Below are positions 1,048 to 43,405 of a stretch of DNA of 50,403 nucleotides, piece by piece (the stretch's first letter is position 1; each line of letters starts with the position of its first letter). The stretch spans positions 1 to 50,403 of the forward strand of contig JAEEHZ010000239.1 of the NCBI GenBank assembly GCA_016281115.1, read 5' to 3'. The translations under genes were made by a program, and so were the position numbers. Under the pieces are notes generated by a model. It made no database searches, was not told the DNA's origin, and saw only the letters and a list, made by a program, of their open reading frames with translations. The DNA comes from Clostridiaceae bacterium. GTDB taxonomy: Bacteria > Bacillota > Clostridia > Oscillospirales > Acutalibacteraceae.

Positions 1048-3045
1048 TTATGCGTCGGTATTCTGATTCATATAGTCGTCGATTGCGTTTTTGAGTTTTA
1101 CAAGTCCTTCTTCAAGCTCTACGTTATCGAGCTGTGCGCCCGCGGAGTCGAAATGTCCGCCGCCGCCGAGCTTTTCAAGTATGAGCTGGACGTTTATCGT
1201 TCCGTCCGAGCGTGAAGAAATATGCACGCTTCCGTCGATTACGCATATCACGAACGACGCGCTGACTTTTTCAAGCGTGAGAAGCTTATCCGCCGCCTTT
1301 GACGCGGCTATTTTATCCTTCTCGTGCGCTTCCTTTTCATACACCGATATCGCTATTTTTTCCCTGTAAATATGGATATTATTCTCAAACGCCGTTTCGC
1401 GCGTGAAATCCTCTATTGATGTACTGAAAAGCTTATTCGCGTCATACGGGTTTGCGCCTTCGCCTCTCAAATACTGCGCCGCGCCGAACGTCTTTGTTCC
1501 CGTGTTTTTGGTAAACTGGTTTGTATCGAGGCTTATACCCGAGAAGAGCAGGTTTGCCTCCGGTCTTGTGAGGGTTCCCGAGGGCACCGACTGTTCGAGT
1601 ATTTCACACATAAGTTCCGACGCCGAGGACGCCGCAGGCTCAATATACGATATTTTCGGCGGATTTACGAATTCTCCCGTCTTTCTGTGGTGGTCGATTA
1701 CGACGAACGAGCTTGCCGATTCGTACAGTTCCGGCACCTCGAAAAACGTAGGATTATTCACGTCGCACACCACGAGCAGCGTATCCGACCTTATGAGTTC
1801 GTGCGCCATTTCCCTGTCGACGAACAGTTCGTCGTATTCCCCCGCCTTATCCCTCATGCTGTCGAATATCTTTTTGAGGTTGAAGTCGTGCACGTTTACG
1901 ACGACGTTTACGGGAACGCCGTTATATTTTGCTATTCTCGACACGGCGACGCACGACGCTATCGAGTCGTGGTCGGCGTACTTATGTCCCATGGCAATTA
2001 CGTTTCCGCTGTTTTTGATGAGATTTATAAGCTCGTTTGCAATGACTCTCGAGCGCACTTTTGTCTTCTTCTGCACCGATTTCGACCTGCCGCCGTAGTA
2101 TTCGACGGAATTTTCGCTCTTTACGACCGCCTGGTCTCCGCCCCTCTGGAGCGCAAGGTCGAGCGCGTTTCTTGCGACGCTCTCCTTTTCGGCGTACGTT
2201 CCGTTTATTTTGGAAACGCCTATCGACGCGGTAAACGGCATGGTTATATTATCTATTTCGATTTCCCTTATTTTATCGAGAATATCGAACTTATCCTCGT
2301 CGAGTCTTTCGAAATATCTCTGCTCGAAAAGGACGATAAACTTATCCTTATCGTATTCCTTGATTATTCCGCCTATCGACGCGGTCCATTCGTCAAGCAC
2401 GCCGCCTATCGTCGCAAGCGCCGTTCTCTGCTTATCCTGTATGAACTGCACCGCTTCGGAGAAGTTATCTATCACGATAAACGCAACCATGAGCGATTTC
2501 ATATCTATTTCGCGTTTCGCGACTCCAAGCGCAGTAATATCGTTCCAGACGGTTATGCAGTATCCCTTGCCCACCGTCGACGTCTTATAGAAATCTATCT
2601 CGTATTCGGCGATTTCTGTTTTAATCTGCATTGCTTCCGCGTTATCCCTGAACATTCTTGCGGGACTGAGTGTTGAACCGAATATTTCGGACAGTTTTTT
2701 TCCGTAAAGCGTTCCTTTTTCGTTTGCACACGCCAAAAACGCCTTATTATACCAGACTATCTCTCCCGAGTCGTTTACTATGGCTATCGGATTTTTGAAG
2801 GAGGTTACGAAATTTATCGTCATTCCCGACAAAAGCGGACTTTCCTTCGTCATTCCGCTTTTTTTGATTTCGCCGTGTGTGATTATCGCGTTTCCGGCAA
2901 GGAAAAGCAATATTATTATCACTCCCGCGAAAAACAGCGGATATTCTTTTTTCACAAGGCATGCAAGAGTAAGCAGTGCAAGTGCAAAAAGCCCCGCAAG
3001 CACGCTCTTTTTTGCAAACATCTTATTAAGACTTTCTTTTAACAT
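1048..3045 (-). CDS. gdpP: GdpP-type DHH/DHHA1 cyclic-di-AMP phosphodiesterase
   Basis: N-terminal TM helices, central PAS/degenerate GGDEF-like region, DHH motif (HKYADHDSIAS) and DHHA1 GGGGH near the C-terminus. Start moved to the ATG at 3045 because the ORF-track start is TTG. Confidence 0.85.
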   Translation of the reverse strand: MLKESLNKMFAKKSVLAGLFALALLTLACLVKKEYPLFFAGVIIILLFLAGNAIITHGEIKKSGMTKESPLLSGMTINFVTSFKNPIAIVNDSGEIVWYNKAFLACANEKGTLYGKKLSEIFGSTLSPARMFRDNAEAMQIKTEIAEYEIDFYKTSTVGKGYCITVWNDITALGVAKREIDMKSLMVAFIVIDNFSEAVQFIQDKQRTALATIGGVLDEWTASIGGIIKEYDKDKFIVLFEQRYFERLDEDKFDILDKIREIEIDNITMPFTASIGVSKINGTYAEKESVARNALDLALQRGGDQAVVKSENSVEYYGGRSKSVQKKTKVRSRVIANELINLIKNSGNVIAMGHKYADHDSIASCVAVSRIAKYNGVPVNVVVNVHDFNLKKIFDSMRDKAGEYDELFVDREMAHELIRSDTLLVVCDVNNPTFFEVPELYESASSFVVIDHHRKTGEFVNPPKISYIEPAASSASELMCEILEQSVPSGTLTRPEANLLFSGISLDTNQFTKNTGTKTFGAAQYLRGEGANPYDANKLFSTSIEDFTRETAFENNIHIYREKIAISVYEKEAHEKDKIAASKAADKLLTLEKVSASFVICVIDGSVHISSRSDGTINVQLILEKLGGGGHFDSAGAQLDNVELEEGLVKLKNAIDDYMNQNTDA

Positions 3046-3078
3046 CAGCTTTTCGCATCCTTCCAACCTGTCTGTATA

Positions 3079-4158
3079 TTACAAAGGATTCTTCGGCGCA
3101 TACGACCTTCTCACCGTCGACGACGCGCCGATAAACGAAAGAATTATCACAACGGTATTCATTCCGAGAATAAAAATCAGCAAAAATGCGAGCGCAGCGA
3201 CGGCGATTACCGCAAGAGCGCGGCTTCTTATCCTCAAAGCGAAGAATCCGTACACGGATTTTATTCCGAGATACGCAAACGGTATTGACAAAATTGTACT
3301 TACGTTATAAAACGCCGCCGAAAGCACGTTGTTTCCGACAAAGAAATCAAAAATGAAATACGCCGCGTATGAAACATACAAAAATCTTGCGCCGAGCGGA
3401 GACATTGAAAACGTCCAGTCCCTGCCGTCAACGCATTCTTTTTTCATATCCGATATTTTACAGAAAAATCCGTAAATTGCGACCGAAAGCGCCGACAGCA
3501 GCATTCCGAATATCACAAGCGAGCTTACCGCGTTTACCTTTACGTAGTATTCGCTCGTCTGTATGAATTCCTCGACGTAATCGAGCGTCTGCGCGTCATA
3601 CGCGGCGTTTTCCGAAATAATATCGAAAATATTCCTATACGTTTCTCCGACGTACGACGCCGCCGTTTCAACAGCTGTTTTCAGTGTCTCCGGTCTTATA
3701 TTTCCGAACGCCCGCCAAATGAAGATCAGCACGTCGGCTATAATTCCCGCGGAAGCAGCCGTGCAGAGTGCGGCATACGTCTTTGCCTTGTTCTGTTTTA
3801 TTTTTGCGCAATAAGACAAGCAAAGTGCGCAGACAAGGCAAAGAAGAACGTTTACGGCGGAGCCGAAAACGTCGCTTCCGCCCGCAAGCACCGGTATTGC
3901 GGCAAAAGCCAATACGGGCACCGCCATGACGTAAGGCAGAAAACCGTATGATATTATTATCGAATACAAGACCGAGAACAGCGCAAGTGAAAGTATTCCG
4001 AGGACCGAGAAAACGGAAAATCCCGCGGCGTAATGAAGCGCGCATAGTAAAGACAGCGCAAAATACGCAAACATGACTATTCCCTTGTTTTTTCCGCTCT
4101 CGCTCCTGTTTTCGTTCAAAGCCGTTCTCCCGTAAAAAATGTTATTATTTTTTTGCAT
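3079..4158 (-). CDS. polytopic membrane protein, YybS/DUF2232-like
   Basis: Many hydrophobic helices. Lies immediately upstream of gdpP, as yybS-gdpP does in Firmicutes. Confidence 0.55.
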   Translation of the reverse strand: MQKNNNIFYGRTALNENRSESGKNKGIVMFAYFALSLLCALHYAAGFSVFSVLGILSLALFSVLYSIIISYGFLPYVMAVPVLAFAAIPVLAGGSDVFGSAVNVLLCLVCALCLSYCAKIKQNKAKTYAALCTAASAGIIADVLIFIWRAFGNIRPETLKTAVETAASYVGETYRNIFDIISENAAYDAQTLDYVEEFIQTSEYYVKVNAVSSLVIFGMLLSALSVAIYGFFCKISDMKKECVDGRDWTFSMSPLGARFLYVSYAAYFIFDFFVGNNVLSAAFYNVSTILSIPFAYLGIKSVYGFFALRIRSRALAVIAVAALAFLLIFILGMNTVVIILSFIGASSTVRRSYAPKNPL

Positions 4159-4285
4159 ACATTATTATATTAACACAAACGCCCGTTTTTTGCAATACCT
4201 CTCTTTTTTGCGTTTTTTTATTCTTTATCAAAATATTTGTTGACAAACGCGGCTTTTTATGATATACTACATAAGCACCAAAAAC

Positions 4286-4360
4286 GGCCCCCTGGTCAAG
4301 CGGCTAAGACATCGCCCTCTCACGGCGAAAACGGGAGTTCGATTCTCCCGGGGGTCACCA
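4286..4360 (+). tRNA. tRNA-Glu (anticodon CUC)
   Basis: Cloverleaf read by hand: acceptor GGCCCCC/GGGGGTC, anticodon loop CT-CTC-AC, T arm GGGAG-TTCGATT-CTCCC, encoded CCA. Confidence 0.9.
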
Positions 4361-4367
4361 ATTTTGC

Positions 4368-4442
4368 GGCCCGTTGGTCAAGCGGTTAAGACACGGCCCT
4401 TTCACGGCTGTAACATGGGTTCGATTCCCGTACGGGTCACCA
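4368..4442 (+). tRNA. tRNA-Glu (anticodon UUC)
   Basis: GGCCCGTTGGTCAAGCGGTTAAGAC...CTTTCAC...GGTTCGATTCCCGTACGGGTCACCA. Canonical Firmicutes tRNA-Glu shape with CCA. Confidence 0.9.
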
Positions 4443-4447
4443 AAACA

Positions 4448-4479
4448 AAAATCCTGCAGCACACGCGGCAGGATTTTTG
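4448..4479 (+). terminator. rho-independent terminator after the tRNA pair
   Basis: ATCCTGC...GCAGGAT hairpin followed by TTTTT. Confidence 0.7.
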
Positions 4480-4521
4480 TAATGAAGAATGAATAATGAA
4501 TAATGAAAAATCAAGGTGCAA

Positions 4522-4547
4522 AAAACCGCGGCGTTTGCCGCGGTTTT
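4522..4547 (-). terminator. rho-independent terminator of the small minus-strand gene
   Basis: AAAACCGCGGC-gttt-GCCGCGGTTTT. Read on the minus strand it is followed by a T-run. Confidence 0.6.
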
Positions 4548-4550
4548 CAA

Positions 4551-4778
4551 TTATTTTTTATGTTTTTTGGTGCTCAGTCCGAAAAGGCCGAGATAATGGT
4601 TTTTCAGAGCTTTTTTCCAATAATTGTATTCCGATTCGCTTGTCGCTCTGTGCATTTCCATCTTTATATATCTGGTTTCCTTTGAAAAAGGAACGATAAA
4701 TTCCGATATGACTTTTATCGCAAGCAGCAGCAATACCGCTATTGCAAAGATAATTACAAAAAAGGTTCCTGCACTCAT
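4551..4778 (-). CDS. small membrane protein, unknown function
   Basis: 75 aa with an N-terminal hydrophobic helix (FFVIIFAIAVLLLLAI) and its own terminator. Confidence 0.4.
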   Translation of the reverse strand: MSAGTFFVIIFAIAVLLLLAIKVISEFIVPFSKETRYIKMEMHRATSESEYNYWKKALKNHYLGLFGLSTKKHKK

Positions 4779-5059
4779 TGCTACCTCCGCAGTTCTCCAT
4801 AATAAAGATAAACTGTTTTTATTATTCTATCATTTGTTTTGAATTTTGTCAACACTTTATGACTTTTTATTACATCTTTTAATATAATATTTTATTTTAT
4901 GACGTCAGACGGGTATTTATTCGTATTTGTTGTAAAATTAACAAAAATTTAAGATAAATTTATATATCCTTTTATATATTCCCATATCCCATTGTTAATA
5001 TGGTTTGCGGGTGATAAACCCCTCGTAAGTTTTTAAAAATGTTTATAAAACCTCGGTCG

Positions 5060-5083
5060 TTTGTCGTAAATTTTGTCGTAAAT
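5060..5083. repeat. perfect tandem 12-mer TTTGTCGTAAAT x2 abutting the integrase stop; possible arm-type recombinase site
   Basis: Exact tandem duplication read directly at 5060-5071 and 5072-5083. The functional role is inference. Confidence 0.5.
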
Positions 5084-5087
5084 AACA

Positions 5088-6356
5088 TTATGATATTTTG
5101 AACGCTCCGTCTAATCTCGCGAAACTCTCTAATTTCTTTTCTCTCGTCGTCTCATTATACACATCCATCGTAACTCTGATATCTGTATGCCCCATTACTT
5201 CTTGGATGAGTTTTACATTGCTTTCGTTCTCACACATTCTTGTGCAAAACGTATGACGCAGGTTGTGGCAGGAAAAATGCGGCAATAAGATTGGCTGCCG
5301 TCCTTCCGTCTTCGCGTTTTTCATCTCTTGAGTGTTAGCGTCTTTGATAATTCGCTTAATCCAGTAGTTGACATACCATCCCCTGAGTATTTTATCGCGT
5401 GTACAGCCAAATACAAACCCTGTATATCCGTCGACGCAGAAAGTATTAAATCCGTGTATTTTTTGATATTCGTATTCTTTTAACAGGGCAAGTTTTACCT
5501 CGGTGAACATTGGAATATCGCGCACACCCGCACGCGTTTTTGGGGTAGATATTCGCGCCCTTTGGCACGTTTCATTTTTGCGGGCATTGTAAAGCAAATT
5601 ATGATTAATTTTAATAATATTGTTTTCAAAATCACAATCTTCCCAACGCAATCCGCACAACTCTCCGATGCGTAGTCCGGTACCTAGCATAACGGTAAAT
5701 ATAGTTTTCAAATTTTTATATTTAGAGTTTTGAGAAATAAATTCTATAAATCTATCCTGTTGCTGTTCGGTTAAAGAGTGCCGCTTTTTTTGTTTTTCGG
5801 CAATATGTTGTATATGCAATTCTGACAGAACGCCGTCGGTGGGGTTACTACGGATTATGTTATCACGCACAGCCATATTAAATAACGGACATATCATTGT
5901 ATGAATGCCTCTTATTGTTCCCGATGTTAATTTTAAATTTATAGCTAGGTGGCTGTATAATTTTTTTATATCCGAACGCTCTATGTTGGAAATTTTCATG
6001 AAACCTATATTATGACGTATATATTTTTCATATCTATATAAATACTCTGATTTAGTAGTTGGTTTAATTATTTTATGCGAAACATACTCATCAAAACAAT
6101 CGTTTAATGTTGTTTCTTGTGATCTTTTTGTGTCTATATCGTCTTCGATATCCCTGAGGATATGTTTTTCAATATCCCTTAACGCTTCGCACTGCCGTTT
6201 ACCGGGTGGCACTTTGTCGGTAGCCACCAATTTCCAACTATATACGCTGTGTCTACCGCTACTGTCCGTATATTTAAACTCATACTTCCCGTCCGGTCTC
6301 TGGCTCTCGCTGTTTTGTAAAATTCTTCCTTTATTATCTCTTCTTTTTTCGCTCAT
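5088..6356 (-). CDS. int: tyrosine site-specific integrase
   Basis: TGLRIGELCGLRWED (catalytic Arg box) and CHNLRHTF...GHTDIRVTMDVYNE (HxxR...Y). Sits at the junction with tRNA-proximal host DNA. Confidence 0.9.
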   Translation of the reverse strand: MSEKRRDNKGRILQNSESQRPDGKYEFKYTDSSGRHSVYSWKLVATDKVPPGKRQCEALRDIEKHILRDIEDDIDTKRSQETTLNDCFDEYVSHKIIKPTTKSEYLYRYEKYIRHNIGFMKISNIERSDIKKLYSHLAINLKLTSGTIRGIHTMICPLFNMAVRDNIIRSNPTDGVLSELHIQHIAEKQKKRHSLTEQQQDRFIEFISQNSKYKNLKTIFTVMLGTGLRIGELCGLRWEDCDFENNIIKINHNLLYNARKNETCQRARISTPKTRAGVRDIPMFTEVKLALLKEYEYQKIHGFNTFCVDGYTGFVFGCTRDKILRGWYVNYWIKRIIKDANTQEMKNAKTEGRQPILLPHFSCHNLRHTFCTRMCENESNVKLIQEVMGHTDIRVTMDVYNETTREKKLESFARLDGAFKIS

Positions 6357-28562: not shown

Positions 28563-29276
28563 TTATTCCTCCAATAAATATACTTCGGCATATTGCACTC
28601 CAAAACTTCGTGCTTCTTCGTGAGAGTCAAAATATATATCAATTCTATTACCCTTGATGTTGCCACCGCGGTCTTCCGCTACATATTCTTGTCCGTTAAT
28701 CAACACTCTTGTGCCATAAGGTATTATATTGGTATCAACCGCTATACTGTGATTAGGGCGTAACGCACATCCGCTCGCTCCGTATACAATTTCTTTTCCG
28801 TTTTCGTCAACCGGACGATTTAATGCATATTTACCACAGCATTTTTCACATGAGCAATACGCAGTTAATTTATAATTTCCCAAAAGAATGTCTCCCGACG
28901 TGTCTTTAAGTATACCTTGATACATATCATCGTTTGTTTTAATATCATATTCTATATGTATCTCTTTATATTTGGACGGAGGAGGGTGTATACTATCCAT
29001 TATTCTTACCACGGCGCATAGTGCATCTGATTGATATAAGTCGTCTTTGTTATTAATACATATTTCGATAGGTTCTTTAACATATGTATATGTTTTTAAT
29101 GTGTATTGTTTTATATCAACAAAACCACATAAACCGCATACACAAACTGCTGTTGCAATTCCTATACAAAGCATCTTAGTGTTCAATATTTCACCTTCTT
29201 TCTCTTTTTTTCTTATATGTGCATTATATATAACAAAGTCGCAATCTACACAACGTTTGCGCAGCGAGTCTTTCAA
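28563..29276 (-). CDS. 3D-domain cell-wall-active protein
   Basis: C-terminal IAVD...YVAEDRGG...RIDIYF is a 3D/MltA-like domain, with an internal hydrophobic anchor. Start uncertain: TTG at 29276 or ATG at 29174. Confidence 0.65.
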   Translation of the reverse strand: MKDSLRKRCVDCDFVIYNAHIRKKEKEGEILNTKMLCIGIATAVCVCGLCGFVDIKQYTLKTYTYVKEPIEICINNKDDLYQSDALCAVVRIMDSIHPPPSKYKEIHIEYDIKTNDDMYQGILKDTSGDILLGNYKLTAYCSCEKCCGKYALNRPVDENGKEIVYGASGCALRPNHSIAVDTNIIPYGTRVLINGQEYVAEDRGGNIKGNRIDIYFDSHEEARSFGVQYAEVYLLEE

Positions 29277-29457
29277 GGTTGCGCAGGACGGTGTGTTTTA
29301 ATTATTTAATCTATTTTCTTTGTGACACTTTTACTAACAGCAAAAGTAGTTGCTAGATGAATATTATTAACAACCAATATACATTGCGACGATTATGTAG
29401 TTCCTATAATTTATAACTGAATGTGGCTGGCAACAGCCATTCTTCGGTATACTCACA

Positions 29458-29534: not shown

Positions 29535-29635
29535 AAAGCAACCATTGCGTTACTATTGCTGACAGCAAATAGCAATCGTACTTTTAAAAAAAATACAATT
29601 AATCTGCATTATAGGTTTAAAATATTTTTTTATTT

Positions 29636-30160: not shown

Positions 30161-30411
30161 TCCTCATCACTCCATTTCAACGCTTGACCACAATGCTCGC
30201 AGAATGTAGTACCACCATTGATGATGTGTTCCTGCACATTGTCCTTTGATATGCTTCCCCCACAATTTGGACATACTGCCCACATCTGTTCATTTTCGAG
30301 TGGGTTTTTCGGTATCTGCTTTTCAAGGGCTTTTTTGATATTTTCATAATCTTCCAACATCCCCACAAACATCTGGTTCATAATGCGGGTTAATGTTTCT
30401 TTATTTGTCAT
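30157..30411 (-). CDS. zinc-ribbon protein (paralog family Z)
   Basis: CPNCGG...[14 protein letters not shown]. Shares the KALEKQIPK and CGQAL.WSDEE segments with its neighbour. Confidence 0.5.
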
Positions 30412-31022
30412 TCTTCTACCTCGCTATTGCTTGCTAACTCTGCAAGTTCTGATATTTTAAGTTCTCTCAAAAATGTTATTTCTGTTCCAACGCACTTGCT
30501 GTCGCAGTCATTTTCGCCTGTAACGCCTTTAAGTTCAACTTCAAATACACGAACATCTTTACCAATATTACCGCTGTAATAATTGAAAATATCGAGCGGA
30601 GACCTGCAAGCGTGAAAACCGCTTATACATAATTCCGCTTTATCGGTCTTATAAGTTTTCCCAAGTTTATACTGAAAACCATTACAACGCATCTTGCCGT
30701 TTGTTGCTTTGAAATAGAGGTCTTTGTATGTTTTAAGACCGTAACAACCTATGCTCGTAAGCGTGCTGCAATTACAGAACGCACATTTTCCTATGCTCGT
30801 AACGCTATCAGGTATTATTACGCCTTTAAGGCTTTTGCAACCGTAAAATGCATAATTTCCTATGCTCGTAACGCTGTTGGGAATATTTATACTTGTAAGA
30901 TTGGTGCAATAGGCGAAAGCACAATTACCAATACTCGTCACACTCTCTGGAATGTTTATGTTTGTTTTATTGCCTTCGTACTGTATCAATTCCCCATTTT
31001 CAATAACAAAATCTTTGTTCAT
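30408..31022 (-). CDS. BspA-type leucine-rich-repeat protein with conserved C-terminal domain (paralog 1 of 4)
   Basis: Repeats of ...P.SVTSIG..AF..C..L... then YFKATNG.M.C.GFQY...[13 protein letters not shown]...CVGTEITF. No signal peptide. Confidence 0.65.
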
Positions 31023-31324: not shown

Positions 31325-31773
31325 TCTTTTACCTCACTTTTAAGCCATTTGAGCCAATGTTCATAAGGCGAAGGAAAATAAATATCTACCAATTCCGCAA
31401 AGTCCGTAATTTGTTTGTTTATCCACTCCGCCAATTCCTCATCGCTCATCTCTCTTATCTTATCGCCGTTTGTCAATGAACCATTGTTGTATTTCCATTC
31501 TTTGTATGTCATAATTTTCGGATATTCTGCACCTGTATCTATGCAATGCTCAAATCCCCAAGATATTACATAATCTATATATCTTCCCCAATCTTCCGTG
31601 TCATCTTCATCCGAAATCATTGCTTGTTTCAACTCTATGCCGCTTTGCTCAAGCCATCCAAATTCATGTTCAAGATAGTCTATCGTTCCGTCGCTGGATA
31701 TTCCGTTTGTTTCTGCGTTTCTTATTGCGACATTTTCGTCAACACTTAATTCTACAAATACTTTTCTTTTCAT
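31321..31773 (-). CDS. hypothetical protein with TNGDKIR-MSD-ELA module
   Basis: AGGAGG RBS. C-terminal [18 protein letters not shown]...[11 protein letters not shown]. Confidence 0.5.
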   Translation of the reverse strand: MKRKVFVELSVDENVAIRNAETNGISSDGTIDYLEHEFGWLEQSGIELKQAMISDEDDTEDWGRYIDYVISWGFEHCIDTGAEYPKIMTYKEWKYNNGSLTNGDKIREMSDEELAEWINKQITDFAELVDIYFPSPYEHWLKWLKSEVKE

Positions 31774-31964
31774 ATTTCCTCCTGTTACAGTATGATTTTA
31801 CAACATTCAAGGTTGTAATTTTTTTGTTTTACATTGTGGTACAATTATAAACGAAGACGTTCTTAAAGAGAAACCATCTCTGGTTATAATAATAGTTTAC
31901 AATCTCTCATTGTGTTTTACCGGGAAGGTTCGAGCACTGTGACTCATAGTCTATATCTGCTGAC

Positions 31965-31977
31965 TTTTTTTTTTTTT
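31965..31977 (-). repeat. A13 homopolymer (RT sense)
   Basis: 13 consecutive T on the plus strand, counted directly. Confidence 0.95.
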
Positions 31978-31980
31978 GAA

Positions 31981-32036
31981 CTTCTTTTCTTTCTTTCCCT
32001 AGTTTTCCTTTCTTTCTCCTGCCTTACTTTTTTTTT
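31981..32036 (-). repeat. polypurine run (RT sense) ending in A9
   Basis: Plus strand is CTTCTTTTCTTTCTTTCCCTAGTTTTCCTTTCTTTCTCCTGCCTTAC plus T9. Almost pure pyrimidine. Confidence 0.9.
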
Positions 32037-32104
32037 CGAGTAAAGCTGTGGTTGCGCGGATTGGTCAGGGGTGTTCGTCGAGCGAGGTTCTCTCTTTCCG
32101 GTCT

Positions 32105-32140
32105 GTTCAAATTGTTACTTTTGCTATCAGCGAAAAGCAC
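32105..32140 (-). ncRNA. stem-loop + GUAAC-box element, copy D2
   Basis: RT sense GCTTTTCGC-TGATA-GCAAAAGT then AACAATTTGAAC. Shares the exact 14-mer AAGTAACAATTTGA with copy U. Confidence 0.6.
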
Positions 32141-32281
32141 ATTCAGATATGAATGTAATTTCATTGTAAACTCAGATTAATTGCTTGTCATCTACATAGA
32201 TTGGATACCTGTTGCCGGGAGTGGAGGCGAGTGCATCTAACATCATTGCGTTCGTTCCTTGGAAATCTTCCTCGTTCTTGA

Positions 32282-32298
32282 TTTTTTTTTTTTTTTTT
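32282..32298 (-). repeat. A17 homopolymer (RT sense)
   Basis: 17 consecutive T on the plus strand. Confidence 0.95.
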
Positions 32299-32346
32299 AA
32301 ACGCCTAACCGCAATGCCTAATAATACTAGAATTCTTTTCCTGCTA

Positions 32347-32363
32347 TTTTTTTTTTTTTTTTT
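32347..32363 (-). repeat. A17 homopolymer (RT sense)
   Basis: 17 consecutive T on the plus strand. Confidence 0.95.
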
Positions 32364-32430
32364 GCAGTAGGTTTGTTTCTTTCCTGCACTGACGCTTCTT
32401 GGTTTGGTGCAGTAGGGCATTGTGTTTTCA

Positions 32431-32443
32431 TTTTTTTTTTTTT
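32431..32443 (-). repeat. A13 homopolymer (RT sense)
   Basis: 13 consecutive T on the plus strand, starting 2 nt after copy D1 in RT sense. Confidence 0.95.
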
Positions 32444-32445
32444 CC

Positions 32446-32479
32446 GACAATGAGTTACTTCTGCTTACAGCTAAAAGTG
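32446..32479 (-). ncRNA. stem-loop + GUAAC-box element, copy D1
   Basis: RT sense ACTTTTAGC-TGTAA-GCAGAAGT then AACTCATTGTC, about 45 nt after the RT stop codon. Confidence 0.6.
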
Positions 32480-32522
32480 TCCATTAAGCATGGACTATAC
32501 ATGACATAGCAAATTATTTATC

Positions 32523-33662
32523 TTATGATTTTAAATCGCTTCGAATTAATTCAACAATATTCACATTGAATTTATTACCAATATGTTCTACCAGCTTATC
32601 TATCGAAGTTCCTTCTACCATACGGTAATAATTCCTGTACCCCTCCATTATCTGGACATCGGATACGTCCCAGGGCTTTCCGTTTTGTTTATCCATGACA
32701 TATGATGCTAGCATCGCTTGAAATTGTCTTTTCTTTTTATGCCCTACGGTAATTTGGTTATCTTTATTCAACATTACCCCAAGATTCCAGTTGGAGCCGG
32801 CAGATGAACCGTATCGCGTTTTCTTTGAATTGATTGTAAATGGAGCTTCGAAATTGTTCAAAGTGTTGATAATAAACTGTTCTATTTCTTTAAATTTAAA
32901 TGTATATTTTGAGGATATTAAAAAATCGTCTGCATATCTGGTATAAACATAATGCTGGTTGTTATATTCTCTTAAACCATTTGAAAGTTTGAAGTCTATG
33001 GGTATCATCATTACATTTGTGATAACTGGGGATATCGGGGTACCCTGCGGAAGTCCTCCGTCCAGAAATGCAAGTTCCAGCGCCTGACTTAATTCTTTTT
33101 TTCCGATATCATGTTTCATAATTTCCGAAAACGGATAAATCATTGAAAACATCTTTAACACAAATTCCAGACTTGTGCTGCCAAAAAAGTTTGATAAATC
33201 ATATTTTCCAAACCATTTGCTTTCATTTGCCTGATGTCGTTTTACCGCATCAATCGTGCTGCGTTTTCTTATATATGCAAACGCCGACGTATGATATAAG
33301 ACGTGGAAGTCGTTTTCAAAAATTGTTTTAAGTCTGCGTAAAGCGTCCATAAGTTCGGGCTCCGGCGCATCTATCTTACGCAACCCGCCGCTTTTTTTAG
33401 GTATATAAAATTCTCGATATAAAGATTTTCTTGGCTTATTACGCAGTTCCTCGGTTGATTTATTAAACTGTATTAATTTAATGATAAGTTCGCCAATATT
33501 TAACCCGTACGGGCGTTTGCTATTTATATTTTTTACCTCATATGTACGTGTATTTGTAATATTTGGACTAATAATCTGTGGTTTTATTTCCGCTTCGAAT
33601 AAAAATTCTTCCAAAGTCATTTGGTGATACTTTGGCGGCTGTTTAATCGTAATATAAGTCAT
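32523..33662 (-). CDS. reverse transcriptase, retron/DRT-like (RT domain only, about 380 aa)
   Basis: YREFYIPKKSGGLRKIDAP, KYDLSNFFGS (motif A), LPQGTPISPVITN (motif B'), YTRYADDFLISS (motif C), KKTRY...NLGVML. Start at the ATG at 33662 behind GAGGTG. Confidence 0.9.
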   Translation of the reverse strand: MTYITIKQPPKYHQMTLEEFLFEAEIKPQIISPNITNTRTYEVKNINSKRPYGLNIGELIIKLIQFNKSTEELRNKPRKSLYREFYIPKKSGGLRKIDAPEPELMDALRRLKTIFENDFHVLYHTSAFAYIRKRSTIDAVKRHQANESKWFGKYDLSNFFGSTSLEFVLKMFSMIYPFSEIMKHDIGKKELSQALELAFLDGGLPQGTPISPVITNVMMIPIDFKLSNGLREYNNQHYVYTRYADDFLISSKYTFKFKEIEQFIINTLNNFEAPFTINSKKTRYGSSAGSNWNLGVMLNKDNQITVGHKKKRQFQAMLASYVMDKQNGKPWDVSDVQIMEGYRNYYRMVEGTSIDKLVEHIGNKFNVNIVELIRSDLKS

Positions 33663-33886
33663 TTTTTTCACCTCGTTATTTAGATTTACTGTAATCAAAT
33701 AGTATTGAGCTGCATCGCTCTCCATCTGATGGAAGGCCGATCTTTTCTGGGAATTTCTTTAGGATTTCTAAATTTGGCGGTTGGTTGGATGTGTTAATGT
33801 GTGACAATTGCGTTTATGTCTATATTAAATTCGATTGTTCTGGTGGCAGCATTATTTGCATCCTGGTGCTGGTTATTCTTTTTCCC

Positions 33887-33920
33887 GTCAAATTGTTACT
33901 TCCGCCTTCGGCAAGAAGCT
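33887..33920 (-). ncRNA. stem-loop + GUAAC-box element, copy U (upstream of RT)
   Basis: RT sense AGCTTCTTGC-CGAAG-GCGGAAGT then AACAATTTGAC, inside the 290-nt ORF-free leader of the RT. Confidence 0.6.
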
Positions 33921-33951
33921 ACCGTTAGGTAAATAACATTACAGTATTTTT

Positions 33952-34395
33952 TTATATTTTTTTAGATCTTAAACTTTTATTAATTCTTTCTTGCAGGCGT
34001 ATTGGTTTTCCTTTACGCATATCAGTTTGCCCGGGTTTTATGCGAGTGTTTAGTCCCGACGTCATTAAGCGCTCCGGCATATGGTTTAATAACGCATGCG
34101 TTTTCATCTCAGCAGAATACGCCTCTGATGTAGTTTTACAACGCCGACATAATCCGAATTTTTCTTTATAATTATCTATAGTCATGCTATGACTTTCTTT
34201 GACGTGAGAGCCCAGGCGTTTATATGCTCTGCCACAAATATGGCATACTACATACCCACGATAATCTTTAACAATTACACCGTCGGGCGGAAGATCGTTC
34301 ATTTCTCCCCCGGTTTTTAGATACCTATAACAAGCCTGACATCTGGATCCATATGGGCGTCCGCGGATTACATCTCCGCAAAAGGAACATGTCAT
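33952..34395 (-). CDS. zinc-finger protein with Ros/MucR-like DNA-binding motif
   Basis: CHICGRAYKRLGSHVKESHSMTIDNYKEKFGL resembles the MucR C2H2-type finger. N-terminal CSFCG...CQAC ribbon. Start at 34395 behind GGGAGGGGG. Confidence 0.5.
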   Translation of the reverse strand: MTCSFCGDVIRGRPYGSRCQACYRYLKTGGEMNDLPPDGVIVKDYRGYVVCHICGRAYKRLGSHVKESHSMTIDNYKEKFGLCRRCKTTSEAYSAEMKTHALLNHMPERLMTSGLNTRIKPGQTDMRKGKPIRLQERINKSLRSKKI

Positions 34396-34577
34396 ATTAC
34401 CGCCCCCTCCCAACAACCATCTACAGAGACGTCTGCTAGATTAGATATCAAATCATCCGCATCTACCTCGTCAAACATTTTAAGCGCCATGTCGCATGCT
34501 TCGTCTTCTGAGTCGGCGTCGATTTTAAAATTCCACGATCCTTCGTAGTGTACAGCAACATTGTAAAACATAGTCAT
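34392..34577 (-). CDS. hypothetical acidic protein
   Basis: 61-aa ORF in the operon. Confidence 0.4.
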   Translation of the reverse strand: MTMFYNVAVHYEGSWNFKIDADSEDEACDMALKMFDEVDADDLISNLADVSVDGCWEGAVI

Positions 34578-34780
34578 TCTCCTTTCTTTGTTTTGTTATC
34601 AAGTAAATTTATATTATCGGTTTGGCGTGCAAGTTTTACAGCCAATGTAATAATTGATTCAATCATTCTATCCGTATAAGCACACTCATTTCCGAAATTG
34701 TTTGTGTAGTCGATATATGCACGTGACTCAGACATGATACCAGAGACGCAACTACGTATTTTTATTTCTTTGGTTGTCAT
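34574..34780 (-). CDS. hypothetical protein
   Basis: Start at the ATG at 34780 behind AAGGAG. Confidence 0.4.
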   Translation of the reverse strand: MTTKEIKIRSCVSGIMSESRAYIDYTNNFGNECAYTDRMIESIITLAVKLARQTDNINLLDNKTKKGE

Positions 34781-35441
34781 TTTTTCGACTCCTTTCATTG
34801 TTTTTGCTTGCTAACTCTGCAAGTTCAGATATTGTCAATTCTCTTATAAATGTTATCTCTGTTCCGACGCATTTGCTATCGTGTTTATTTTCATTTGTAA
34901 CGCCTTTCAAAGCCACCTCGAAAAGACGAATATCTTTATCAATTTTTCCGTTGTAATAATTGAATACGTCTAACGGTGACCTGCAAGCGTGAAAACCACA
35001 TTCACATAATTGCGCTTTATCGATTTTGTAAGTCTTAACAAGTTCATATTGAAATCCTTGACATTGCATATCACCATTCGTTGCTTTAAAGTAGCGGTCT
35101 TTGTAAGTTTTAAGGCTGCTGCAATTGTAGAATACTCTGCCTCCGATGCTCGTCACACTGTCGGGAATAGTTATGTTTGCAAGACTGTAGCAGTTATTGA
35201 ACGCATATTTTCCTATGCTCGTCACACTATTGCCAATTATAGCATTTGTAAGGCTACTACAATTATCGAACACACAGTTCCCGATGCTCGTCACACTGTC
35301 GCCAATTATTATGCTTGTAAGATTACTACAACCATAGAACGCCCAGTCTTTTATACTTGTAACGCTGTTTGGAATAACCACCTTTGTACCTCTTCCGTTG
35401 TATTTAATCAATGTTCCATTTTCGATTTCAAATTCTTTCAT
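34752..35441 (-). CDS. BspA-type LRR protein with conserved C-terminal domain (paralog 2 of 4)
   Basis: Same repeat and C-terminal [15 protein letters not shown]...CVGTEITF architecture. Confidence 0.65.
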   Translation of the reverse strand: MKEFEIENGTLIKYNGRGTKVVIPNSVTSIKDWAFYGCSNLTSIIIGDSVTSIGNCVFDNCSSLTNAIIGNSVTSIGKYAFNNCYSLANITIPDSVTSIGGRVFYNCSSLKTYKDRYFKATNGDMQCQGFQYELVKTYKIDKAQLCECGFHACRSPLDVFNYYNGKIDKDIRLFEVALKGVTNENKHDSKCVGTEITFIRELTISELAELASKNNERSRKNDNQRNKNT

Positions 35442-35455
35442 TTGTTAATTCCTCC

Positions 35456-36040
35456 TCATTTTTCGCTTGCTAATCTCGCAAGTTCCGATATTGTCAACTC
35501 TCGCAAAAATGTTATCTCTGTTCCAACACATTTTCTATCACCGAAGTGGTTTTCCTCTGTTACGCCTTTGAGTTCAACCTCGAATAACCGTACATCTTTG
35601 CCAAGTTCACCGTAATAATGATTGAACACATCTAACGGACTGCGGCACGCGTGAAAACCATACTCGCATAGTTTTGCTTTGTCGGTTTTATAAGTTTTCC
35701 CGAGTTCATACTGAAAATCTCGACAACGCATGTTTCCGTCCGTTGCTTTGAAATAGCGGTCTTTATAAGTTTTAAGGCTTTCGCAAGCGTAGAACGCACC
35801 GCCTCCTATACCTGTTACGCTATCGGGAATATTTATACTCGTAAGACTGCTACAACTATCGAAAGCATAATGTCCTATGCTCGTAACACTATCGGGGATA
35901 GTTATGCTCGTAAGATTTATGCAACCGTCGAAAGCACAATTACCAATGCTCGTAATCCCGTCTGGGATTTTTACATTTGTATTTTTGTCTGTATATTTAA
36001 TTAAAACTCCGTCTTTAATAACAAAATCTTTGTTTTTCAT
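35456..36040 (-). CDS. BspA-type LRR protein with conserved C-terminal domain (paralog 3 of 4)
   Basis: Same architecture, in tandem with paralog 2. Confidence 0.65.
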
Positions 36041-39700: not shown

Positions 39701-40372
39701 TTAAAATACATCAAGCATTCCGTGAAAACCGTCAATTTGCGTGAACTTCCAGATACCGTTTCCTTTTACAAAATTGATATAATTATTTACTCCAAGCGCG
39801 CATATAAGCCGCACCGTTGTCGCTACCCCGAGCGTCACTCCGCAAGCCGATACCGGAGTTTCTTCCGCCGCTTCTTCGTGTGAAAATTGCATAGATTTTA
39901 ACAAATCCTGTTTCATTTTATAATCGCTCCAGTCCGCCGCATAATGCTGTGCGGATTCAAGTAAAGTTCTGAAATCAAATACCGCTTTTACATACGGACT
40001 GTCCATATGTTTTTCCACGATACTTCTCCGCAATTCAATATTATCTACCGCTATAAAAATATATCCCGACATTAATTTGCCCTGCCACCCCTCGGGTTTA
40101 AGTTCAATTTCGTCTGCGATTTCCGGATTAATATCTATAAGAATGTCTTTTAACGCATCAACTTTTAATTTACCTATATCCTGCTGGCGAAACATCTGGT
40201 TACAAATATTATGAGCTTCAACTTTATCAAAGTCCCACAGCGTCATTTTTGTTATACCGCATCTCGCTAAATTTTCTGCAAGTGTAGAACCCACAGAGCC
40301 ACAACCAACAATATGAATGCGGGATGTGTCTTTTTCCGGCTGGAAAAATTCATAAGACTTGCTTAAATCCAT
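39701..40372 (-). CDS. ThiF/MoeB-family E1-like adenylyltransferase (short form)
   Basis: Rossmann GxGxxG in IVGCGSVGSTLAENLARCG and DFDKVEAHNICNQ. 223 aa. Confidence 0.75.
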   Translation of the reverse strand: MDLSKSYEFFQPEKDTSRIHIVGCGSVGSTLAENLARCGITKMTLWDFDKVEAHNICNQMFRQQDIGKLKVDALKDILIDINPEIADEIELKPEGWQGKLMSGYIFIAVDNIELRRSIVEKHMDSPYVKAVFDFRTLLESAQHYAADWSDYKMKQDLLKSMQFSHEEAAEETPVSACGVTLGVATTVRLICALGVNNYINFVKGNGIWKFTQIDGFHGMLDVF

Positions 40373-40374
40373 AA

Positions 40375-40926
40375 TTACACCTCTTCGCGCATTTGCATTA
40401 TTGTTATATCTTCAATACTGATATTACCAGTATCAGAATCATCCTCATCACCAATATGCTGAATTGCATCACTGCAAGACGTAAATAACTCATCAAACGA
40501 TAAGCTTTCTTCTTCTGCACAAATTTCATCTTCGATGTTTATATCGCCATCCGGATCTTCTTCTTCGAGTGATTCCGGATTTTCTCCTTCGTCATCTTCC
40601 CATATATCGTTGTCGTCACACCATTCAAGCACTGCATCGCATTTTGCGTCATAATCATCACCATCTGCGCCTCGCCACGTGCCGTCGTAATCATCTCTTA
40701 TGTAATAATCACATCCCTCTGGTAAGTCGTTAAGCCAGTCACGGATCTCCTGCCAACTTTCATCCCGAAGAAGATCTTCTATTTCTTGCTCAATTGATTC
40801 TGAATAACTATCAGCAGTCCAAACGTCGTCAACATAGTCATCGCAACCGTTTTCATTACAAAAGTCTATTAAATCGTACCAATCCCAATCGTTATACGCA
40901 ACATCAACAAATTCTTCTCTTGTCAT
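40375..40926 (-). CDS. highly acidic hypothetical protein
   Basis: 183 aa, very rich in D/E (for example EDDEGENPESLEEEDPDGD). Confidence 0.45.
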   Translation of the reverse strand: MTREEFVDVAYNDWDWYDLIDFCNENGCDDYVDDVWTADSYSESIEQEIEDLLRDESWQEIRDWLNDLPEGCDYYIRDDYDGTWRGADGDDYDAKCDAVLEWCDDNDIWEDDEGENPESLEEEDPDGDINIEDEICAEEESLSFDELFTSCSDAIQHIGDEDDSDTGNISIEDITIMQMREEV

Positions 40927-40940
40927 TTAAATTAACCTCC

Positions 40941-41807
40941 TTAATCCATGCAATATCCGTGGCGGCTATACCAACTCACAATATCATCATCGTCATCAAG
41001 CGCGTCAAAATGCTGTTCTTTAATGCGTCCGCCGCGTATTCCCCTTCGTCTGTGTCTTGTGGGTATATCCTCTTCTTTGTCTGTTGTTGTCTTTGAGTCG
41101 GACGTAAATCCAATAGTATTTCCGGGCTTTTGTGTGCTTATTACATGTGTGCTTATTACAACGGCTTTATCGCAAACCATTGTTTTGGCGTCAGTGATAA
41201 ATTTTTCAAGTCCCGTGCCGTCGTCCAAAATCTCAACTTTACAGTCTGATGTTTCGAATAATATGTTCTTTGCCATATCATATATTTTTATTGTCTTGTC
41301 GCCTTTTTTGTTCCATATCATAAATATATAAAACATTGTGTCATCAAGCTGTTCGAGGATTCTATCATATAAGGCGGTATCGACAGAAGACGGCGATGTT
41401 CCCATGTTGACATGCGAGTGCCCCTGCATTCTGATATTGTTAAACACGTCATCTTCGTGTGTCATAAGCCACGTCTGATATTTCGCCTGATCTGTGGTTA
41501 CCGTTGCACCGGTTACTTCCTGTGGATAAACAAGAATGTCGGTGATATAATATTCGTCTTTTGATGCGTCGTCACCTCTTTTTGCTATGCCGTGCCAAGC
41601 GACTTCTTTATCAAATTCCTTAATTAATGTTTGCATTTTTAACCAAGCAAGCTCTGTAAAATAAACAGTCGCTTCTCGTTTAATACCCGAAAACGACTTC
41701 GAGAAACTTATTTTGCCATCGGATAATTTAGCGGCTTGAATCGCTTCATTAAACGCTCGCTTTATTTCTTCTATGTTTTCCGGGGTTAATTTAATTATTT
41801 TAGCCAT
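40941..41807 (-). CDS. JAB/MPN (JAMM) metallopeptidase-domain protein
   Basis: JAMM signature H-S-H-x7-S-x2-D in QGHSHVNMGTSPSSVD. Confidence 0.75.
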   Translation of the reverse strand: MAKIIKLTPENIEEIKRAFNEAIQAAKLSDGKISFSKSFSGIKREATVYFTELAWLKMQTLIKEFDKEVAWHGIAKRGDDASKDEYYITDILVYPQEVTGATVTTDQAKYQTWLMTHEDDVFNNIRMQGHSHVNMGTSPSSVDTALYDRILEQLDDTMFYIFMIWNKKGDKTIKIYDMAKNILFETSDCKVEILDDGTGLEKFITDAKTMVCDKAVVISTHVISTQKPGNTIGFTSDSKTTTDKEEDIPTRHRRRGIRGGRIKEQHFDALDDDDDIVSWYSRHGYCMD

Positions 41808-43287
41808 TTGCGTTTTCCTCCTGTTGTTTTAAATACACAACCGCTTCTTTGGGTGTAACAACGGCGCCGTCGGGAAGTTCTATACATTTCATATTCACCC
41901 GTTCGTCGCTTAAACCATATACTCTGAGCATAAATTCTTGCATAACCGTTGAGTCGGCAAAGTTTAAGCTTTTACACGAGGCAATACACTGCTCGATTGC
42001 ACCTATATAATTATTGTTAAGCAATAATGAATTTATTTGCCTTTCATAATTACCAAGGCAACGATATTTATCTATATGAGGATTTGGCGTGTATCCGTCA
42101 TACTCATATTTGTAAGAGAAGTGATCTCTTGCTCTCACATTTGAATCAAGCTGAAAATCATACGCAGCGCACACCCTGACACGAAGCGTCTGGTCAAGAA
42201 AGATTGCAGTCATTAATTTTTTCATATCTTCCGTCGGAATAATATTATTGCAAGTTCTGCCCCTCGGCTCATATATATAACTATGCTCGTTATCAATCAT
42301 GCTTTTCGCCATATCTTCGTCAAAATATGTGATATAATCTTTCACGCCGAACAGAACGTGAACATTATCAACGCTTTCGAGAACCAAGTGATTGTTGCAT
42401 AAGAAATACTCCATAATTTCAGATTCGTCTTTTGTTTTAGACATTGCCGTCTCTATTCCAAGCAACTTGGTTTCGGTATCGCGCTTCTGTTCTAATTCAA
42501 TTCCGATTTTATTATTTAATTCATTAATTCTGTATATTATACTTTCAATATCTGATCTGAGACGTTCGCATTCACGAGATTCGTAACGAGACTCAAAACC
42601 GGAGAGAAGTTCCTTGATTTTTATCGTCCTAAAATCATATTGTTCCGACATACGCGTCAAACAATCTTTATATTTCTCCGACTTATTCTCTCGTAACGAA
42701 TTAATAAGTTCCATCTCAATTTCCGAAACACCCTCTTCCGGATTAAAATACCACGGCAAGAACGCAAAAATGCCACATTGCAAATAATGCATATCGCGTA
42801 TGTCCATATTATTTGTACAAATTATGACATTTTTATTAACCGGTTCGACAAAACAAGCCACATCAAAACGTTTTTGAAAAAATAACGTTACCTTTTCGAG
42901 CGGGCGCCATTCGGGATGAACTTTACAAAAATTCTGTTTTACCATTGTCATCCAAGCGTTATTGTTCTCCGCTGTTGGATTATAAAAATTAGAAACCAGC
43001 AAAACACCTTGAGCGTCGTGTTGTTCTCCGTTGTAAAAAAATACTCTTCCCGTCGCAATCTCTAGAGCGCGGGTTGTTTCCAAGCCGCTTAGCTGAGATG
43101 CTGAATAAGTAGAATCTCGAAATAACACATTTAACTCTTCATTATTTTTTAATCGAGAACCGAGAAGCGCTCTGAGCGTTGACAAAAATGTAAAATCTGA
43201 ACGCCAAGGTTCTCCGTGAATATTGGAAAAAGCCATATTTGCACCGGTAGATGTAAACGGTGTAGATTGTATAATCTCTTTAAACAT
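41800..43287 (-). CDS. large hypothetical protein of the ThiF/JAB cassette
   Basis: 495 aa. Start trimmed to the ATG at 43287 (GAGAGGAG upstream) because the longer ORF overlaps tRNA-Leu. Confidence 0.5.
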   Translation of the reverse strand: MFKEIIQSTPFTSTGANMAFSNIHGEPWRSDFTFLSTLRALLGSRLKNNEELNVLFRDSTYSASQLSGLETTRALEIATGRVFFYNGEQHDAQGVLLVSNFYNPTAENNNAWMTMVKQNFCKVHPEWRPLEKVTLFFQKRFDVACFVEPVNKNVIICTNNMDIRDMHYLQCGIFAFLPWYFNPEEGVSEIEMELINSLRENKSEKYKDCLTRMSEQYDFRTIKIKELLSGFESRYESRECERLRSDIESIIYRINELNNKIGIELEQKRDTETKLLGIETAMSKTKDESEIMEYFLCNNHLVLESVDNVHVLFGVKDYITYFDEDMAKSMIDNEHSYIYEPRGRTCNNIIPTEDMKKLMTAIFLDQTLRVRVCAAYDFQLDSNVRARDHFSYKYEYDGYTPNPHIDKYRCLGNYERQINSLLLNNNYIGAIEQCIASCKSLNFADSTVMQEFMLRVYGLSDERVNMKCIELPDGAVVTPKEAVVYLKQQEENANG

Positions 43288-43320
43288 ACCAAACTCCTCT
43301 CTTATTCTTGTTTTTTTTTT

Positions 43321-43405
43321 TGGTGGGGAATGCCGGACTCGAACCGGCACGGATTAATCCATCGGATTTTAAGTCCGAAGCGTCTGCCAATTTCACCAAT
43401 TCCCC
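43321..43405 (-). tRNA. tRNA-Leu (anticodon UAA)
   Basis: GGGGAAT...anticodon arm TCGGA-CTTAAAA-TCCGA, long variable arm GGA-TTAA-TCC, T arm GCCGG-TTCGAGT-CCGGC, CCA. Confidence 0.9.

Follow-up and report, generated by a model that had tools for sequence, protein, structure and literature searches.

What kind of system does a prophage carry when it encodes a reverse transcriptase (RT) that stands alone between non-coding flanks? This question is raised by a locus on contig JAEEHZ010000239.1 (assembly GCA_016281115.1) of a Clostridiaceae bacterium, of which we analyzed positions 1 to 50,403; this whole stretch of 50,403 nucleotides is the window referred to below. A preliminary description of the same DNA had called the RT retron-like or DRT-like (DRT, defence-associated reverse transcriptase), had proposed that it works with several non-coding RNA (ncRNA) template modules, and had been unable to match its layout to the msr-msd gene of a retron. 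A retron is usually described as a single RT with a single ncRNA and a single toxin, protecting bacteria from phages. Our analysis suggests that the locus is probably a retron belonging to a lineage of temperate phages of gut Clostridia, with three to five msr-msd ncRNA genes from which several multicopy single-stranded DNAs (msDNAs) would be made.

The RT gene lies on the minus strand at 33662-32523 and encodes 379 amino acids plus the stop codon, including an N-terminal extension of about 75 residues that has no counterpart in solved retron RTs. The motifs KYDLSNFF, LPQGTPISP, YTRYADDFLISS and YREFYIPKKSGGLRKIDAP are present together with the IPKKSGGLRKIDAP box, and RVT_1, at residues 87-286, is the only Pfam domain, with no second domain beside it; the earlier account of an open reading frame (ORF) with the full set of palm motifs and no fused effector therefore stands. 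The ATG at 33725, which would give a protein of 400 aa, was rejected as the start because homologues begin at MxYIT and because the a2 arm of the upstream module M1, described below, sits between the two ATGs.

Comparison with sets of hidden Markov models (HMMs), a check that the preliminary description had proposed, places retron RT models and structures ahead of DRT2/DRT9, group II intron and diversity-generating retroelement (DGR) RTs. The best 25 of 68 PADLOC matches are all to retron RT families and none to a DRT family, the top one being RT_II-A (1.5e-46), and the top NCBIfam match, retron_St85_RT, scores 174 bits where the cut-off is 235. A phmmer search of PDB gave the retron Ec83 RT first (6e-19), followed by the Ec78, Ec67, Kva2 and Ec86 RTs. 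The structure was predicted with AlphaFold (predicted local distance difference test score, pLDDT, of 77) and searched with Foldseek; retron RTs again lead (the top matches of the PDB and Foldseek searches taken together include Ec83, Ec78, I-A, Eco7, Ec86 and Eco2), and group II, DRT9 and DRT2 (the last two at ranks 19-34) and a DGR RT (rank 28) appear lower in the ranking. NCBIfam matches to Drt2 (1e-11) and Drt3a (7e-9) cover fragments only, the Drt2 model reaching 44 bits against a cut-off of 390 across just 82 residues. A group II intron was ruled out, since TIGR04416 gave 87 bits against a cut-off of 300 and Rfam gave no group II intron match in the window. Of the earlier assignment, then, the retron part was upheld by PADLOC, NCBIfam, PDB and Foldseek, and the DRT part was not, the Drt2 and Drt3a matches remaining far under cut-off. 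The RT belongs to the retron clade by HMM, PDB sequence search and predicted fold, and because it falls below the NCBIfam St85 cut-off we place it in a separate retron sub-clade. Identity drops in a step from about 40% within the RT family to 30% or less with other retron RTs of the genome and viral collections. Region X (NAxxH) and region Y (VTG) are motifs of retron RTs in which the H and the G are most conserved (PMC7736814). In an alignment with the Ec83 RT, AVKRH corresponds to NAKIH with H143 kept, and NLG corresponds to VTG with G295 kept; this H and this G are invariant within the family, and the remaining residues of the two motifs are not retained.

The nature of the flanks became apparent when they were aligned with those of relatives at 73-81% RT identity, which revealed repeated units. 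Each unit starts with CTGTAATG, continues with a variable hairpin and GCTTCTYGCYGTNAGCRGAAGTAACAAYTTGA, and ends with GATTACAG about 300 nt further on. The units were detected with a seed HMM and then with a covariance model (CM; R1), in almost all of the related loci. All 266 module matches found by nhmmer and all 188 CM matches, the latter from 91 loci, are on the RT strand. At least 105 related phage loci have modules together with this RT family, in the orientation of the RT and at fixed offsets, the usual positions being 260-380 nt ahead of the RT start, 10-40 nt past its stop and some 300 nt beyond that. Of 78 full-length loci, 59 have two to four modules with a detectable a1/a2 pair no more than 3 kb from the RT. 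The proposal of several template modules is thus borne out, and in related phages they are conserved together with the RT.

Every module consists of a terminal inverted repeat (a1/a2), a G after a1, two msr hairpins and an msd of 150-250 nt. Among 189 unique modules, a1 and a2 match exactly over 7-14 bp, and 56 different a1 7-mers occur, each with its matching a2. The 5' and 3' ends share an inverted repeat of at least 9 bp in 53 of 92 modules, against 8 of the 92 controls, and modules have a median length of 298 nt from a1 to a2. In a 67-sequence msr alignment a1 is invariably followed by a G, the putative branching G, and in 174 of the 189 modules a G also stands immediately before a2, a position at which the search did not demand one. 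Folding gave at least two msr hairpins in 183 of the 189. The second, which is followed by GUAACAAYUUGA, covaries: it is 96.4% paired, seven of eight pairs have double changes, and 199 double-change cells were counted versus 48.7 in shuffled data, with at most 46% pairing when the partner was slid. RNAalifold, run on a MAFFT alignment, recovered hairpin 2 only, because hairpin 1 varies in length; hairpin 1 was assessed by folding single sequences. The msr-msd signature of retrons comprises repeats at the termini, a pair of opposing G residues and short hairpins in the msr (Mestre et al., PMC7736814), and, judged by sequence, the modules match that signature exactly. The statement that the layout could not be matched to msr-msd is thus overturned, every module having a1/a2, a G after a1 that is usually opposed by another G, and msr hairpins.

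In most modules the canonical long hairpin was rejected as a description of the msd on the basis of fold z scores. Tracts of A of at least 8 nt occur in 13 msd and tracts of T, C or G in none; tracts of at least nine A are found in only nine modules, from eight loci including the window. Searching the window against Rfam 15 gave only tRNAs at the gathering threshold and, at E values up to 5, no match to the modules. A separate Rfam match, to RT-17 RNA at 31709-31814 on the minus strand (21.9 bits, gathering threshold 40.4, E = 0.89), lies just beyond M3, where it overlaps the beginning of the next gene, and is probably due to chance. Two variants were seen in relatives. At 4184-4256 of locus L094 there is a minimal 73-nt module in which a2 (ATTACAGAAC) almost abuts the msr, leaving practically no msd; a normal module comes immediately after it. 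In L004-L007 and L002 every msd contains the short hairpin GTTGTCnnnCAAC, conserved apart from a variable loop, which is absent from the window and may be a stop or protein-binding signal.

Run with filters off, the CM matches the window at five places, each of them on the minus strand (E = 2e-12, 2e-11, 3e-8, 9e-4 and 0.055), in agreement with the repeated structured modules that had been noticed in the flanks. M1 (33946-33687) is upstream of the RT. It is formed by a1 TACTGTAAT (33946-33938), the putative branching G at 33937, the opposing G at 33696 and a2 ATTACAGTA (33695-33687); its CM match at 33945-33879 scores 68.3 bits (E = 2e-12), and the minimum free energy fold is closed by the a1/a2 stem. 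M2 (32512-32181) begins 11 nt past the RT stop, with a1 TTGCT-A-TGTCAT (32512-32501), G at 32500, the opposing G at 32192 and a2 ATGACA-AGCAA (32191-32181). Its CM match at 32508-32438 scores 49.2 bits (E = 3e-8), its fold is again closed by a1/a2 (z = -3.2), and TGTCAT/ATGACA is replaced by TGTAAT/ATTACA in L002 and L004, a compensatory change. Directly after it comes M3 (32172-31894), with a1 AGTTTACAAT (32172-32163), G at 32162, the opposing G at 31904 and a2 ATTGTAAACT (31903-31894), the two arms being exact over 10 bp; the CM match at 32170-32098 scores 63.8 bits (E = 2e-11). The homopolymer tracts mentioned in the preliminary description fall inside the msd of these two modules: A13, A17 and A17 in M2, and A9 and A13 in M3.

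The locus is wider than had been described, with two further modules at 29615-29238. M4 (29615-29403, minus strand, about 2.3 kb downstream of M3) has a1 CCTATAAT (29615-29608), G at 29607 and a2 ATTATAGG (29410-29403), with a CM match of 27.9 bits (E = 9e-4). Its msd is a long near-perfect hairpin in the style of canonical retrons, and the whole module folds at -77.4 kcal/mol (z = -9.05); M4 is kept in L175, including a1/a2, and the L175 copy has the opposing G. M5 is a probable short module at 29390-29238 on the minus strand, with a1 GTCGCAAT (29390-29383), G at 29382 and a2 ATTGCGAC (29245-29238) preceded by G; its CM match is weak (19.4 bits, E = 0.055), an exact 8-nt a2 stands where expected, and a1, msr and a2 are all kept in L175. 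Just upstream of M4, at 29663-29640 on the minus strand, is a strong hairpin resembling a terminator, CCCCTCCTG...CGGGAGGGG and then TTTT, so that M4 and M5 may form a transcription unit apart from the RT. A scan for promoters and terminators gave counts no higher than in shuffled sequences. The listed TTG start of a 3D-domain/EntD-like gene (28563-29276) makes that gene overlap M5; comparison with L175 suggests that its true start is further downstream, after the sequence GAAGGTG, which resembles a ribosome-binding site.

The msd is also the part of the locus that changes most. Over 12 kb the window and its relative L172 are 93-100% identical except in paralogs with leucine-rich repeats (LRR) and in three msd interiors (41-71%), while msr and a2 are identical; for M1, compared with L172 and L175, msr and a2 are 100% identical and the msd interior 41-66%. 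We extended the comparison to 77 close phage pairs, which are non-independent, so the figures are descriptive and no formal test is attached to them. The mean difference per site was 0.114 in the msd (substitutions only), 0.073 at RT third codon positions, 0.008 in the msr and 0.005 at RT codon positions 1 and 2, the two RT values reflecting purifying selection. In 88% of pairs the msd differed more than the third codon positions, by about 3- to 20-fold in the closest ones, and between near-identical phages its interior shows about tenfold more difference than msr, a2 and neighboring non-coding DNA. Along the module the profile of differences per site is bell-shaped, with 0-0.03 in the msr, 0.10-0.17 in the msd center, 0.016 in the last 10 nt of the msd, 0.011 in a2 and 0.01-0.018 in the first 60 nt of non-coding DNA past the last module. 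What changes are single, scattered bases; 64% of the substitutions are transitions, AG and CT are about equal, and there is no adenine bias. The segment that would be copied thus appears to be a local hot spot of change. Because it changes faster than adjacent non-coding DNA, loss of constraint alone is insufficient, which implies either diversifying selection on the msDNA sequence or a raised or RT-linked mutation rate. One form of the latter, rather unlikely in our opinion, is a self-diversifying retron, in which error-prone msDNAs would anneal to their own msd loci during replication and RT errors would enter the genome. Were this so, the msd would evolve several-fold faster than neutral sequence, with msr, a2 and the ends that serve as homology arms held fixed, and the phage would possess a panel of fast-changing single-stranded DNAs acting as decoys or specificity determinants against systems of the host or of rival phages.

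Several observations count against reading the locus as a multi-template retron. No retron subtype model scores the RT above its curated cut-off, the 174 against 235 bits given above being the best result, and the region X and Y motifs of the RT are degenerate, with AVKRH for NAxxH and NLG for VTG. A stable stem-loop is missing from most msd (mean fold z of -0.96 over 98 msd; -0.38, -0.27 and +0.15 for M1, M2 and M3), and in some modules a1 is similar to a -10 hexamer (TATAAT in M4, TACAAT in M3), so its conservation could be partly promoter-related. Searches with Pfam, PHROGs, PADLOC and NCBIfam found no known retron effector among the neighbors tested, which leaves the locus outside the tripartite definition of retron defence. 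Finally, transcription of the region, 2'-5' branching and msDNA synthesis are all steps that we infer by analogy with characterized retrons.

These observations give some room to other explanations. The modules could be regulatory RNAs or DNA sites of the phage (promoter or terminator cassettes, antisense RNAs, recombination sites) and not RT templates, and the -10-like a1 of M3 and M4, the promoter score of M2 a2 together with M3 a1, the unstructured nature of most msd and the position of M4 and M5, 2.3 kb from the RT and behind the hairpin at 29663-29640, would all fit. Against it, the modules accompany this RT family at constant offsets and in the same orientation in at least 105 loci, and a1 and a2 covary across about 300 nt with opposing G residues in the manner of retrons (PMC7736814); the commonest a1, CTGTAAT, lacks the A at position 2 of a -10 box. 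We consider this explanation unlikely. A lower probability still is given to a decaying remnant of a retron, now without effector or function, in which the msd would change through lost constraint. The missing effector and the unstructured, low-complexity, tract-rich msd are what it predicts, whereas strong purifying selection on the RT (0.005 versus 0.073), a YADD and most other RT motifs invariant down to 47% identity, msr, a1 and a2 more conserved than synonymous sites, and a layout retained in more than 100 related phage loci are not, and lost constraint alone leaves unexplained an msd that outpaces both third codon positions and adjacent non-coding DNA.

The two remaining alternatives concern the type of RT. 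In a system of the UG/DRT type (UG, unknown group), the flanking RNAs would template a toxic or protein-coding complementary DNA (cDNA) or a homopolymer, as in the concatemers of DRT2 or in DRT9. DRT2 and DRT9 likewise combine a stand-alone RT and structured ncRNA and lack an effector, their RT structures are in the Foldseek list (ranks 19-34), and the A13-A17 tracts lie within the templates. The RNA A-tracts would, however, template dT, whereas DRT9 makes dA, and tracts of nine or more A are confined to the few modules counted above; the RT falls among retron families in each of the best 25 of 68 PADLOC matches, its Drt2 and Drt3a matches are partial and far under cut-off (44 versus 390 bits), and the ncRNA has the a1/a2 and opposing-G anatomy of retrons. 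We regard such a system as very unlikely, ranking it between the regulatory and the remnant explanations. The least probable of the four is a DGR or a DGR-like element, whose cDNA, copied from the modules as template repeats (TR), would rewrite a variable region (VR) such as the nearby LRR paralogs. These paralogs do adjoin the RT, are hypervariable and differ strongly between the window and L172, and the templated segments are variable; yet it is the template itself that varies here, whereas the TR of a DGR is conserved. The RT has QGxxxSP and groups with retron RTs, with a DGR RT only at Foldseek rank 28, and a DGR was rejected on two results: no related copy of any msd was found within the 50-kb window, and the substitutions (64% transitions, AG and CT alike) are not biased toward adenine.

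If the locus is a retron of the kind proposed at the outset, its working might be as follows. The region would be transcribed and each module would fold on its own a1/a2 stem, after which the RT would recognize the shared msr hairpin and its tail. The 2'-OH of the invariant G would prime synthesis, and the msd would be copied from its a2-proximal end toward the msr. The template would be removed by an RNase H, that of the host or, in the sub-lineage of L008 and L009, one of the phage's own, where an RNase H gene directly follows the modules; maturation of retron msDNA needs RNase H1 (PMC8989520). Several distinct branched msDNAs of about 150-250 nt, some with long dT tracts, would result in the lysogen or infected cell. 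The vertical inheritance of the RT described below, the missing toxin and, in relatives, neighboring genes of the NAD-salvage type lead us to suppose that these msDNAs would serve the phage lineage and would not belong to a mobile toxin-antitoxin cassette. As for what they do, immunity of the lysogen, through a trans-acting effector or one yet to be recognized, is a tentative possibility, another phage function is an equally tentative one, and a role as decoy or in counter-defence comes after these two; superinfection exclusion, which the preliminary description had proposed beside counter-defence, is likewise a possibility.

Prophage-borne retrons and orphan retrons are already known, and much of this locus resembles them. 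The closest RT models are those of type II-A/St85 retrons, and also of I-A (Ec78/Ec83), the likeness extending over HMM, sequence and fold. An ncRNA directly upstream on the same strand, with a1/a2, two G residues and two msr hairpins, is shared with retrons in general, and carriage by a prophage with Ec73, Ec67 and many other E. coli retrons. Unlike known retrons, the locus has three to five ncRNA genes per RT, some of them downstream and some 2.3 kb away; an msd that is long (150-250 nt), mostly unstructured and hypervariable; an RT extended by 75 aa at its N terminus, in which the NAxxH and VTG motifs are degenerate and whose subtype scores lie below cut-off; no NDT, Septu or other known effector found; and an RT inherited vertically within a phage lineage and not scattered in defence islands. 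The branch of Retron-Eco5/Ec107 also lacks an associated protein, for which trans effectors or a different function have been considered (Mestre et al. 2020, PMC7736814). Our locus shares with these orphan retrons an RT and ncRNA without associated protein, but theirs are single-ncRNA and chromosomal and ours has several ncRNAs in an array that has become fixed in a lineage of phages. As with DRT2 and DRT9, the active agent may be what the RT makes and not a partner protein, although the RT clade and the ncRNA architecture are different and nothing here points to rolling-circle or homopolymer synthesis. DGRs, too, can combine a phage-borne RT with a localized hypervariable segment, but here the template itself is variable, neither a TR/VR pair nor a spectrum specific to adenine was seen, and the RT is a retron-type one.

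In the literature that we covered, which was incomplete so that an earlier description is possible, we found no account of a retron RT with an array of ncRNAs, of an effector-less retron extending through a phage lineage, or of a hypervariable msd. A whole lineage of large temperate gut phages that has a retron RT and a template array and no toxin bears on the role of effector-less retrons, and the array bears on whether phages exploit msDNA for their own purposes. The sharply bounded hot spot in the msd offers a natural test of whether retron cDNA feeds back into the genome. An RT that accepts several long unstructured msd of 150-250 nt would have a property sought for multiplexed single-stranded DNA donors inside cells.

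The gene content flanking the RT in the 50-kb window locates it in a prophage, as had been proposed. One end is marked by a host-like GdpP-like c-di-AMP phosphodiesterase gene (within 1048-6356), two tRNA genes (4286-4439), probably the phage attachment site, and a Tn916-type tyrosine integrase gene (5088-6356), after which come the genes for NrdD, Pol III alpha, a methylase, primase and DnaB. The neighbor that had been called MucR-like is a ROS/MucR gene at 33952-34416 and abuts the RT locus. The flanks at 33663-33950 and 31860-32522 had been described as lacking a credible ORF, and they hold only short non-conserved ORFs on either strand, with many indels even between relatives whose RTs are 97% identical; a 92-aa ORF across the A-tracts (32172-32450) was rejected as coding, being judged non-conserved because indels distinguish the relatives. 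Intergenic gaps are kept in relatives, about 360 nt 5' of the RT and 340-900 nt 3' of it. Cassettes of LRR_5/DUF7666 paralogs are found at 34752-36040 and 30408-31022; together with the msd interiors they are the sole strongly diverged or replaced segments between the window and L172, the rest being 93-100% identical.

At least 484 relatives of the RT were found in IMG/VR, on contigs of 60-140 kb. The identity of the RT tracks that of neighboring proteins (Spearman 0.79 for the ThiF-like and 0.74 for the JAB-like protein), which suggests that the RT co-diverges with the phage backbone and is vertically inherited. These two proteins are encoded in a four-gene block that lies upstream of the RT in L001-L009 and, in the window, at 39701-43350 on the minus strand. 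The block encodes a protein of about 500 aa, a JAB-like protein of about 300-313 aa with a JAMM-like HSHx7Sx2D motif in relatives, a protein of about 180 aa, and a ThiF/E1-like protein that matches models of the Cap2-type E1-E2 of CBASS (cyclic-oligonucleotide-based anti-phage signaling system) and 6A-MBL cap2_3. The block looks like a phage module for ubiquitin-like conjugation or deconjugation. The ThiF-like gene accompanies the RT in 110 of 126 loci; in the window 6 kb separate the block from the RT, so that the linkage looks like phage synteny and not like an operon.

Downstream of the RT, by 1.5-6 kb, L004-L008 have genes for an NMNAT-like protein (CTP_transf_like), an isochorismatase-type, nicotinamidase-like protein, a PRPP-synthetase-like protein and an NMN transporter, and in the same region one for a metallophosphoesterase. 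The NAD-salvage-type genes resemble those that phages use for NAD+ reconstitution in counter-defence. A blastn search of cultured and deposited phages with the locus gave no match. In a tblastn search of deposited phages, a single uncultured fecal phage (MT835544, unannotated) encodes a relative of the RT at 42% identity, all other RTs being at 32% or less; distant stand-alone RTs of 24% identity occur in the cultured Staphylococcus jumbo phages MW349128, OR770614 and LC680885.

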